The position numbers were made by a program. From Escherichia coli (GTDB lineage: Bacteria; Pseudomonadota; Gammaproteobacteria; Enterobacterales; Enterobacteriaceae), in NCBI RefSeq assembly GCF_003991155.1, contig NZ_CP031297.1: a stretch of DNA of 64,000 bases; one strand, given 5' to 3'. Shown in pieces: positions 51,001-54,000 of the stretch; the stretch's first letter is position 1; each line of letters starts with the position of its first letter.

Positions 51001-54000
51001 GATTTTACCGCCAAATCGAACCTTATTAGAGCGGTTTAGGCTGGACCGGCAGTTAAAATTGGGGCTTGAGCGGTAAACGAGTGAGGGAATTTCAGGTAAG
51101 ATACTTCGGATGAGGAGCAAAAAGGTGGTTTATACTTCCTATACCCTGAGCCAGATGAAGAACAAGACGTAGACGACCCTATTTTGTTCGCTCATGAGCA
51201 TTCAGACTCAATCACACTCACCAAAGTCGAAAAGCCAGTAGCAGAAAGTGTATATGTCGCTACGCGTAACTCTTACAGCAACAACTTTGATTTAGTTCTT
51301 GAATGTATCTTGAATCCTGAAAAATATTACAGCCTATATCAAGGCTCATATGATGGCACTCATGTTCAAGTGATCCTGAATGACTTGGCACTACTACCAT
51401 CATGTAAGACACATAAATCAGAAATTGGCGACTATGTAACATGCAATGTACTGGAGCTGTTCAAAGGCTCAATAGATGCGTATGGCGCAGAAAGTGAATT
51501 TATTGATTCATTCGTGCAACTCGACATTACACCGTACTTAGATAGCACACTGAAAATGGACTACACCGAATTGCAGTTTAGCTACCAGAGCAACGATCTC
51601 ATTGCATTTTTTGGGAATGATCCATGTTCTTAACATGGATCTCTATAGAATAGGAGAAAATACAATGTCTGATCATATCTATAATTACATCATCGGCAGA
51701 ATCGACAAAAGCCGTAAAATTATGGTTCTGGTGAACTACGAATCAAGATCCAATCTGGTGACTCAAGCACAGTTAATGAAAGTCCAATTCCCGAACCTCA
51801 ATACCTTGAGAATGTTCCTGAATGACTTTGAGCCAACGGAAAAACATGTTATCCATTACTCGAAATACAGTAAAGAAATGCCATCAGGTGCAGATGGATA
51901 TTTCCTATTTTCAGAACATGACCAACAATGGAATATTTTTGATCCAAAAGTTATAAATCGGTTTGTTCACATACACCAAGAAGCACCAGAGTTCGATAAC
52001 TACCAAGATTATATCTGTTCTTGTGAAGTCAAAAACTCACCTACACTTAAAGCAAAACATAAAAAACAAGCATTTGTGCAGAAGATGATCTTCACTTCAT
52101 TGGGTTTTGAGCGTTATTGCCATCATTGCAATGGCTATGAACCACTGGATCGCTTTTATTATCATTCTGATACCAAAACCTATGAAGCAGTTTGCAAGCC
52201 TTGTTATGTTCCTCATTACAAGCCTTACAAAATGAAAAAACGTATGACCAGTACGGTTGAAGAATATATTTAATCATTAACTAGAACTCAAAAAGATGGG
52301 CGAATTCAAACATGAGGTGCGACAGTTTCAAAAGCCATATGATAATCAACAAGCTGAGCAAATTTCTCTAATGGTGTAAGCCAATCTAACGCTTTTCTAG
52401 GACGAGTATTCAGTGACATGGCAACTTGATTTAAATAATGCTGATCTGCCTGATTTAAATCAATCCCTTTAGGTAAATATTGCCTAATTAAACCATTCAT
52501 ATTTTCGCATGTGCCTTTTTGCCAGGGTGAATGTGGGTCACAGAAATATACATCTATGCCTAAATCTTCTTCGAGTATTTTATGTTCTGACATCTCACGT
52601 CCACGGTCATAGGTCAACGTTTTACGCAGTTCTGCAGGTAAATATTTCAGAGCTTCAGTTAAAGCCTTGCGCACTGATTCTGCCTTTGCATCAGGTAATG
52701 TTGCCAAGATACAGAGCCGTGTATTTCGTTCAATAAGTGTTGCTATCGAACTTTTATTGTCTTTACCGTAAGCGTAACGCCAACCACACATTCCAATCCT
52801 AACTGATCAACTTTACCCTGTCTGCCATTATCAACTGCCAGGGTAATCATCATGCACCGCACCAAAGAACAATGGTTCGCTTTATTCGCCGAGCAAGCCC
52901 AAAGTGGCCTCACCCAAACTGAATTTGCAAAACGTCAGGGCATCATTCCTACATATTTTAGTTATCGCAAGAGACAATTGTTGGCGTTTCAGGATGATGA
53001 CGGTGGCTTTATTGAGCTGACGCCACAGGGCTTGCAGCTGAATAAATCCATTTTACTACGTAAGCGTGATGTGGAATTGCAGTTTCCAGCCGGCACTGAT
53101 GTGCTGTGGTTAGCGGCCTTGCTCAGAGCGCTCTGACCATGAAAATGTTTCTTGATGTGCCCCAGGTCTATTTGCATAAACAGCCGGTCGACTTTCGTAA
53201 ATCTATTAATGGTTTATCGTTGCTAGTTGAGCAAGAGATGCAGCTCTCGCCTTTTAGTGGCGCACTGTTTGTATTTTGCAATCAGCAGCGTACCCGGTTA
53301 AAAGTACTGTACTGGGATAGCACCGGGTTTTGCCTATGGTACAAACGGCTTGAAAAAGACAAGTTCCGCTGGCCAAGGCAGATGCCTGGCAAAATCCTGT
53401 CTATTAGCGAACAACAGTGGCATTGGCTGTTGCAAGGTGTCGATATTCAAAAAATCACCGCCCATCAGCCACTGCATTACCAGAGTGTGGGCTGATATGA
53501 CGATCGGCTATAAATCCTTGTGATCGCATCCAAAACAATCTAAATCTTACCAAGCACTTAGCCCAATTGGCCGTTACAATAGCGGCCATGAAAAAGACAC
53601 CTCAATCCTTACCTGATGATGTTGAACTGCTCAAGAAAATGCTGCTTGAGCAGACGCAAAAGCTTGAGCGGAAACTGGCACAAAAAGATAAACGCATCGC
53701 CAAATTAGAGCGGGTTAACCAGCAACTGTCGGACAAGCTGCAGCAATTGCTGGAGCGTTACAACCTGAAGAAGTACCAGAAATTTAGCCCCAGCAGCGAG
53801 ACCTACGAAGGTGATGGCGAAGTCTTAAATGAGGCCGAACAGCTGATTGAAGACGAGTCAGTAGCGACAGAGCCAGATAATCAGACGACCGAGAGCGCTG
53901 AGAAACCCGCCGCTAAGCCACGCCGACCAAGGATTGCCCCTGAGCTGCCGCGCGTTGATGTTATCCATGACATTGACGATAAAACCTGTGCCTGCTGCGG

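Follow-up and report, generated by a model that had tools for sequence, protein, structure and literature searches.

Acinetobacter megaplasmid DNA captured between ISCR1 and ISAba125 in a blaNDM-1-bearing complex class 1 integron

Among described structures, the closest to the locus studied here is the complex class 1 integron of pGD31-NDM and pC1394 (2019, PMC6834847; MH457126, MN604268, AP024844), in which a pair of open reading frames (ORFs) lies between the element ISCR1 and the transposon Tn125 that carries blaNDM-1. That report draws the pair as 'orf-orf', calls them 'two genes of unknown function' and leaves their source unstated, and the Toleman model (aberrant rolling-circle replication of ISCR1 followed by recombination through the 3'-conserved segment, 3'-CS) was proposed for pGD31-NDM (PMC6834847). 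We analyzed a 64,000-nucleotide stretch of Escherichia coli DNA (contig NZ_CP031297.1 of assembly GCF_003991155.1, referred to hereafter as the window) which is collinear with MN604268 over positions 44000-64000 (strB, intI1, aadB, qacEdelta1, sul1, ISCR1, orf, orf, ISAba125 interrupted by ISAba24, and the Tn125 interior), and which shows the same order from the 3'-CS to blaNDM-1 with no substantive difference from pGD31-NDM/pC1394. The AT-rich segment between ISCR1 and ISAba125 is thus already known, its sequence being present in 64 plasmid records and its structure having been described; what we add is that both of its ORFs derive from an Acinetobacter megaplasmid, and that the first of them is truncated. 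A preliminary description of the window, made from its sequence, had presented the segment as DNA that a database match to an already characterized flank of ISCR1 or ISAba125 would show not to be new; the segment is real, but, having been published for pGD31-NDM/pC1394 (PMC6834847), it is not novel.

The second system against which the locus has to be read is a family of multidrug-resistance megaplasmids of Acinetobacter (Ghaly et al, 2020, PMC7738440), the same family as group III-4a of Mindlin et al (2021, PMC8490738). A megablast search of positions 51147-52295 against 72,556 plasmid records returned 64 matches, 59 of them from Acinetobacter and mostly on replicons of 250-400 kb. Identity is 100% over 1149 of 1149 bases in at least 28 plasmid records, which means that the observation is no chance pattern. 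The captured fragment in full (1152 bp, 51147..52298, + strand) is 100% identical to pXBB1-9 of A. johnsonii and to at least 27 other plasmids, and aligns with 0 mismatches to positions 8001-9152 of the pXBB1-9 extract that we used for comparison (L001, the reverse complement of CP010351 182066-199214); identity is likewise 100% to p34AB and to other plasmids listed in PMC8490738, placing the segment on the III-4a backbone, and is 96% to the permafrost member of the family. Its composition (37.5% GC, vs 53.2% in ISCR1 and 53.0% over the window as a whole) had led the preliminary description to call the segment AT-rich and to propose a non-enterobacterial, possibly Acinetobacter-like, source, and both points are borne out. 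Among 5426 complete E. coli genomes a single one carries the segment, on plasmid pEC732_IMP14.

Within pXBB1-9 the segment belongs to a long series of hypothetical genes that all lie on one strand, where full-length orfA (277 aa) and orfB adjoin TnaphA6 (ISAba125-aphA6-ISAba125), and the flanking gene order is common to pXBB1-9, the CRAb2 plasmid, pABF9692, and pALWED1.1. The megaplasmid backbone and the window share the orfA-orfB pair, the ISAba125 insertion site, and the ATG duplication at that site; the window, however, keeps only 1152 bp, is cut within orfA, lacks the native promoter module and terminator, and carries its copy on an IncC replicon of Enterobacterales/Vibrio instead. We conclude with high confidence as to origin that the segment is very probably passenger DNA from a pXBB1-9-like (group III-4a) Acinetobacter megaplasmid, taken from beside the insertion of an ISAba125-bounded transposon.

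The right-hand boundary ties the segment to that transposon. ISAba125 begins at 52299 (GGCGAATTCAAAC...), as in all copies compared, and the ATG that precedes it (52296-52298) is a 3-bp target-site duplication belonging to the captured backbone; the preliminary description placed the left edge correctly but ended the segment at 52295, 3 bp short of the start of ISAba125. The junction ...CAAAAAGATG/GGCGAATTC is identical in the window, in pXBB1-9 (where it flanks TnaphA6), and in pABF9692 (where it flanks TnaphA6 fused to Tn125, with the NDM module oriented as in the window), which answers the earlier suggestion that a flank of Tn125 be sought in Acinetobacter. On the far side of the composite element both plasmids read ...CTCTGCC/ATGGCAAC, hence the ATG duplication, and the window thus shares the IS end, the insertion point, and the 3-bp duplication with the Acinetobacter copies. 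Once rejoined, the two flanks fold as a hairpin (AAAAAGATGGCAA-N10-TTGCCATCTTTTT followed by a T-run; -16.7 kcal/mol, z -4.2) that is likely the terminator of orfB, and refolding of this empty site places a left-arm remnant of the hairpin, AAAAAGATG, at 52290..52298 (+ strand), the last 3 bases of which are the duplicated ATG. The uninterrupted site is found in 15 megaplasmids, including pALWED1.1 from a permafrost A. lwoffii. Because the same ISAba125 junction occurs in Acinetobacter plasmids and the site is uninterrupted elsewhere, the segment is DNA of the donor replicon that was brought along with Tn125; from mid-orfA through Tn125, the window holds one contiguous megaplasmid piece carrying ISAba125-bounded modules.

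A plasmid of A. baumannii CRAb2 (CP133707, extract L004, 13222-23320) carries Tn125 in the same orientation but 177 bp further into orfB, inserted exactly at the CxxC codons of the gene (GAGCGTTATTG/.../TTGCCATCATTGC) with a TTG duplication. We considered the CRAb2 plasmids as the donor arrangement and rejected them, this insertion being independent (other site, TTG duplication). This locus of the backbone has thus taken up ISAba125 elements twice, at the ATG site and at the CRAb2 site, in a span of 180 bp.

At the left-hand boundary, the rolling-circle transposase gene of ISCR1 (rcr1/orf513, 513 aa, 49373..50914, + strand; IS91-like ISCR1 transposase WP_000050481.1 in identical relatives) is followed by the oriIS region (232 bp, 50915..51146, + strand), a length equal to that reported by Lallement et al (PMC6218425). 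The oriIS end GGTTTATACTTCCTATACCC lies at 51127-51146, where the preliminary description had placed it, and finishes 232 bp past the rcr1 stop; alignment to pXBB1-9 and pEC732_IMP14 shows that ISCR1 gives way to foreign DNA at precisely 51146/51147. Foreign DNA starting directly after the oriIS end, on the flank that lies downstream of rcr1, is what defines an ISCR1 variable region. The class 1 integron 3'-CS (qacEdelta1-sul1) precedes ISCR1, in the same order as in pC1394, and positions 44000-50745 are 100% identical to the intI1-aadB-qacEdelta1-sul1-ISCR1 region of MN604268.

The segment consists of two reading frames on the same strand. The first, orfA (51148..51633, + strand), comprises the last 161 codons plus the stop of a 277-codon Acinetobacter plasmid gene (WP_024160764.1); the retained part is E117-S277, the first 116 codons are gone, as is the native promoter, and the frame is open back to 51100, inside ISCR1, so that the earlier reading of this ORF as a 5'-truncated gene open into the ISCR1 end holds. 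No family was matched by orfA in Pfam, PHROG, NCBIfam, or PADLOC, nor in a sequence search of the PDB, and a collection of 5.8 billion proteins contains 8 relatives; the retained half is modeled at a predicted local distance difference test (pLDDT) score below 50. Since its first 116 codons are missing and there is no obvious start, we regard orfA as a dead remnant. A common 'ADG...W.I.D' motif raised the idea that the N-terminal domains of orfA and orfB are paralogues, which was rejected on an hhalign probability of 0.2%.

The second frame, orfB (51665..52273, + strand), is an intact hypothetical gene of 202 codons (WP_024160765.1) with a ribosome-binding site (AGGAG) 8 nt before its ATG, and is the 202-aa Cys/His-rich ORF that had been noticed from the sequence. 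The protein contains 6 Cys and 11 His, with a CxC (118/120) and two CxxC motifs (152/155 and 177/180), and combines an N-terminal alpha/beta domain without known relative with a zinc ribbon of CxxC...CxxC type at the C-terminus (residues about 140-185); its AlphaFold2 (AF2) model has a pLDDT of 84. Alignment reveals a conserved C-terminal module (LG.ER.C.HC..Y.P.D.FY...CK.CY.P.YKPYK) with near-invariant cysteines C152, C155, C177, and C180, a module that is also found as stand-alone proteins of 65-87 aa. The family is tiny and Acinetobacter-centered (12 proteins among 1.84 billion representatives), and relatives of the 125-residue N-terminal domain are confined to it. Between the pXBB1-9 and permafrost plasmid copies there are 25 differences with a ratio of non-synonymous to synonymous change (pN/pS) of 0.25, on the strength of which we count orfB a real gene.

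Searches of Pfam, NCBIfam, and PDB sequences gave nothing usable for orfB, and Foldseek structure searches returned only uncharacterized proteins and weak zinc-ribbon overlaps. Its C-terminal domain matches phrog_3273 (function unknown; E 6e-11), and resembles the four-cysteine zinc ribbons of these small phage proteins in its CxxC-(about 21)-CxxC spacing, conserved F/Y-Y, and basic tail; weaker PHROG matches are to Lar-like (phrog_5558, E 7.7e-4), HNH, and endonuclease VII entries, in keeping with PHROG and Foldseek overlaps with the N-terminal zinc ribbons of phage HNH/endonuclease VII-type and Lar-like proteins. Membership of the Lar-like or HNH/endonuclease VII groups does not follow, as profile searches gave no significant match to either, orfB has no Pfam match, and the beta-beta-alpha-Me His/Asn catalytic motif of the HNH/endonuclease VII proteins is absent from it. 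We think it probable that orfB is a small, nucleic-acid-binding zinc-ribbon protein serving the megaplasmid. The earlier judgment that neither ORF is a resistance gene stands: both are hypothetical in every record, with no predicted_resistance_gene entry (AMRFinder/RGI in PLSDB), NCBIfam gave no hit above noise, and PADLOC matched neither ORF to any defense family at E<=1. The segment has no role in resistance.

Comparison with the megaplasmid also reveals what the captured genes have lost. Gene groups in the megaplasmid are each preceded by a module, CGATG-T(5-7)AATTGATTAAAA ... GAAAAGTTTTT ... TATAAT ... CTTAAAACTTGGAG-N7-ATG, the 16-bp near-palindromic core of which (TTTTAATTGATTAAAA) occurs in 8 copies in 17 kb of pXBB1-9 (positions 706, 2616, 3887, 6115, 6866, 12361, 13735, and 14532 of the extract) vs 0.18 expected. 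This repeated module looks like a common operator, promoter, and 5' untranslated region of a plasmid-wide regulon, and is not described in the megaplasmid papers PMC7738440 and PMC8490738. The copy that serves orf213-orfA-orfB was not captured, being situated 1.1 kb upstream of where orfA is truncated, and orfB in the window is left without its own promoter and terminator. Two outward-facing ISCR1 promoters, identified as motifs from the sequences in PMC6218425, point toward the segment (PCR1-1, TAAACG-N17-TAAGAT, 51074-51102; PCR1-2, TTCGGA-N18-TTTATA, 51105-51134), and orfB starts 518 bp downstream of them; PCR1-1/PCR1-2 have been reported to increase the expression of genes on the same strand at distances of 94 and 532 bp (PMC6218425). 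It is probable, judging by this arrangement, that orfB is transcribed from PCR1-1/PCR1-2 in the window, and such transcripts should run antisense into ISAba125, because ISAba125 split the orfB terminator.

The means by which ISCR1 and the megaplasmid piece were joined can be approached through the junctions of related plasmids. The fusion of ISCR1 to orfA is present in all 5 non-Acinetobacter records and in 0 Acinetobacter records. Four records have the junction of the window (AP024844, pC1394, MN604268, and MN604267), with window and pC1394 identical across it, whereas pEC732_IMP14 (L002 7985-8001) carries 15 extra orfA bases (GGCGTTAATGGACAT) at the oriIS junction; the two forms read TACTTCCTATACCC followed by TGAGCCAGATG or GGCGTTAATGGACATTGAGCC. 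Slippage was considered for this 15-bp difference and rejected, since the borders are without microhomology. At the distal end, a 97-bp ISAba125 remnant abuts the 3'-CS (...TAACGCT/CTGGTTCTGAAATCC, the latter on the 3'-CS side; junction string GCCAATCTAACGCTCTGGTTCTGAAATCC) in pEC732_IMP14, MN604268, and pC1394 alike; the window itself stops at 64000 inside ISAba125, so that this 3'-CS end of the variable region is one seen in the collinear MN604268 and pC1394 and in pEC732_IMP14. The same distal junction is found in 28 plasmids with ISCR1-blaNDM-1 units that are joined to oriIS at other positions, among them those of PMC3940617, with the oriIS junction in ble; a unit with its oriIS junction in dsbD has also been described (PMC10819877). 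These have the common distal junction but, their oriIS junctions being in ble or dsbD, are without the backbone piece. One common distal junction is thus combined with differing oriIS-side junctions, namely in ble, in dsbD, and at two points of orfA that are 15 bp apart. pEC732_IMP14 has this distal junction and the segment as well, differing in its 15 additional orfA bases and in the absence of blaNDM-1, of ISAba24, and of an IS5-like miniature inverted-repeat transposable element (MITE).

That MITE, about 106 bp long, sits in the 97-bp ISAba125 remnant beside the second 3'-CS in pC1394 (L003 about 24690-24800) and MN604268 (L007 reverse complement about 4633-4743), with terminal repeats GGAAGGTG.GAA / TTCGCACCTTCC and a CTAA duplication; the widespread ISCR1-blaNDM-1 units carry it.

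In the donor, the three-gene operon orf213-orfA-orfB has the conserved promoter module in front and the hairpin terminator at its end, into the left arm of which ISAba125 inserted, duplicating ATG. In the mechanism that we propose, a 3'-CS/ISCR1 unit would then have entered the ISAba125 copy that precedes aphA6/blaNDM-1, and rolling-circle replication from oriIS would have passed across ISCR1 and the 3'-CS, continued into neighboring DNA, and ended inside orfA; the resulting circle could have recombined with a class 1 integron via the 3'-CS. The variable region so formed would comprise mid-orfA, orfB, Tn125, aphA6, and the 97-bp ISAba125 remnant, between the oriIS end and a second 3'-CS, and the product would be the complex integron now on IncC plasmids of Enterobacterales and Vibrio. 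The Toleman model leads one to expect a variable oriIS-side junction and a fixed distal one, and this is the pattern seen, although serial deletions next to oriIS could give the same pattern. We hold this account of the joining with moderate confidence.

Several points weigh against it. The rolling-circle step is itself a model, as transposition has never been demonstrated experimentally for any ISCR element (PMC6218425). The 15-bp junction difference between pEC732_IMP14 and the other records needs either a second, separate event at the ISCR1 end or an oriIS-adjacent deletion without microhomology. The ISCR1/orfA junction is absent from 100,044 species-representative genomes and from the Acinetobacter plasmids of PLSDB, and the arrangement orfB-ISAba125-ISCR27 at the ATG site, with aphA6 after it, occurs in no Acinetobacter record of PLSDB; because both junction and donor arrangement are absent from the Acinetobacter records searched, the host where ISCR1 and the segment came together is one that we infer. 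As for the transcription of orfB, a generic scan for promoters and terminators inside the segment gave results at chance level.

The same origin could have been followed by a history with no ISCR1 rolling circle at all, in which ordinary recombination or IS-mediated deletions joined the block, for example in a megaplasmid with a complex class 1 integron, the block afterwards moving inside a larger integron or a Tn21-type unit. The missing experimental demonstration noted above favors such a history, as does the presence of ISCR1 class 1 integrons on pXBB1-9-type megaplasmids, the same replicons as the locus (pXBB1-9 itself has a complex class 1 integron with ISCR1; Mindlin et al, PMC8490738); the region has moreover been reshaped by ISAba125, ISAba24, ISEc70, and the IS5-like MITE, and the role of ISCR1 in blaNDM mobility was judged minor by Acman et al. 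It fits less well with foreign DNA that starts at the last oriIS base in two variants and whose other end abuts a second 3'-CS copy, which is the signature of an ISCR1 variable region, and the combination of a common distal junction with differing oriIS junctions is better matched by variable termination or oriIS-adjacent deletion than by random recombination. We consider joining by recombination possible, if on the whole unlikely.

The segment might further be a fossil of the replicon, of pXBB1-9 type, in which ISCR1 was first linked to blaNDM-1, the ISCR1-blaNDM-1/aphA6 units then being products of repeated rolling-circle events from one progenitor. We offer this as a tentative extension and a doubtful one; were it true, the units would constitute natural evidence of an ISCR1 activity that experiment has yet to capture.

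A selective explanation would make the segment cargo, with ISCR1-driven orfB benefiting the IncC plasmid through, for example, Lar-like restriction alleviation, anti-defense, or regulation. The intact frame with its good ribosome-binding site, its position 518 bp from functional outward (POUT) promoters, the purifying selection on orfB in Acinetobacter, and the phrog_3273 and weak phrog_5558 matches of its C-terminal domain would all suit this explanation. We nonetheless find it highly improbable: the enterobacterial copies are 100% identical to Acinetobacter copies, leaving no time for selection to show; just 5 non-Acinetobacter plasmids have the segment, and most ISCR1-blaNDM-1 units have the distal junction yet no segment; and neither Pfam (no Lar or other family), nor PADLOC, nor the structure searches supply a function of this kind. 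Derivation from an Acinetobacter phage or chromosome instead of a plasmid backbone, at which the PHROG matches of the orfB C-terminal domain and of a neighboring 382-aa gene might hint, is scarcely credible given 0 nucleotide matches in 50,697 phage records (blastn, distant mode) and Acinetobacter matches that are all plasmid records with synteny conserved over at least 17 kb.

Read as passenger DNA, the 'unknown' sequence beside ISCR1 is no new resistance or mobility determinant and need not be chased as such. It serves rather as a provenance tag, marking an ISCR1-blaNDM-1 variable region that was cut from a large Acinetobacter plasmid together with Tn125, and it links IncC plasmids carried by Vibrio and Enterobacter associated with seafood, and by clinical E. 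coli and Salmonella, to an Acinetobacter plasmid family that also carries ISCR1 class 1 integrons. The set of junction variants is usable to test models of gene capture by ISCR1.

Beyond the segment, the ISAba125 copy of Tn125 that adjoins ISCR27 is split in two (first part 52299..52767, second part 55192..55817 ending ...TTTTACTCTGCC, both - strand) by a 2424-bp ISAba24 of the IS66 family (52768..55191, + strand; ends GTAAGCGTAACGCC...), flanked by an 8-bp duplication, TCTTTACC, at 52760-52767 and 55192-55199. The Tn125 interior follows (55818..63736, - strand; ISCR27, groEL, groES, cutA, dsbD, trpF, ble, and blaNDM-1) and shares 99.9% identity with Tn125 as annotated in pC1394, in pABF9692, and in the CRAb2 plasmid; a second ISAba125 copy, upstream of blaNDM-1, starts at 63737 and runs to the window end (63737..64000, - strand). 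In MN604268 the second ISAba125 copy has ISAba24 at the same position, which suggests that ISAba24 spread between the ISAba125 copies by recombination, with no second insertion. A Rfam search of the captured segment was empty (best E 0.41).

The sequence from the ISAba125 end to the start codon, GGTTCACTGTAGCAAAAATATGG/GGCGAATTC, is the same before blaNDM-1 and before aphA6 in pEC732_IMP14, MN604268, and pABF9692 (sites compared: window 63700-63760; L002 12140-12180; L005 7470-7500 and 16480-16510), and the upstream region of aphA6 in pXBB1-9 differs from this type. This common upstream region fits the known aphA6-blaNDM-1 chimera; the apparent 'NDM remnant' beside aphA6 in pEC732_IMP14 was rejected as such, being this canonical sequence. 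Identical upstream regions of the two genes give extra homology for the swapping of modules.

Compared with window positions 49373-50745, MN604268 (L006, 12231) has an apparent partial tandem repeat of the ISCR1 region, in which two BLAST blocks overlap by 1.37 kb at about 99.8% identity, the ORFs being frameshifted; its probable cause is an artefact of long-read assembly or an error in sequencing, not biology. In the megaplasmid, the 382-aa gene just past the ISAba125 site (L001 12514-13662) matches phrog_10079 over its full length (E 3e-56; a phage family, function unknown), and for a neighbor gene at L001 2739-3836 the match is to PAPS-reductase-like proteins of phages (phrog_424, E 2e-27), so that by PHROG matches several genes of the megaplasmid array are common to phages.

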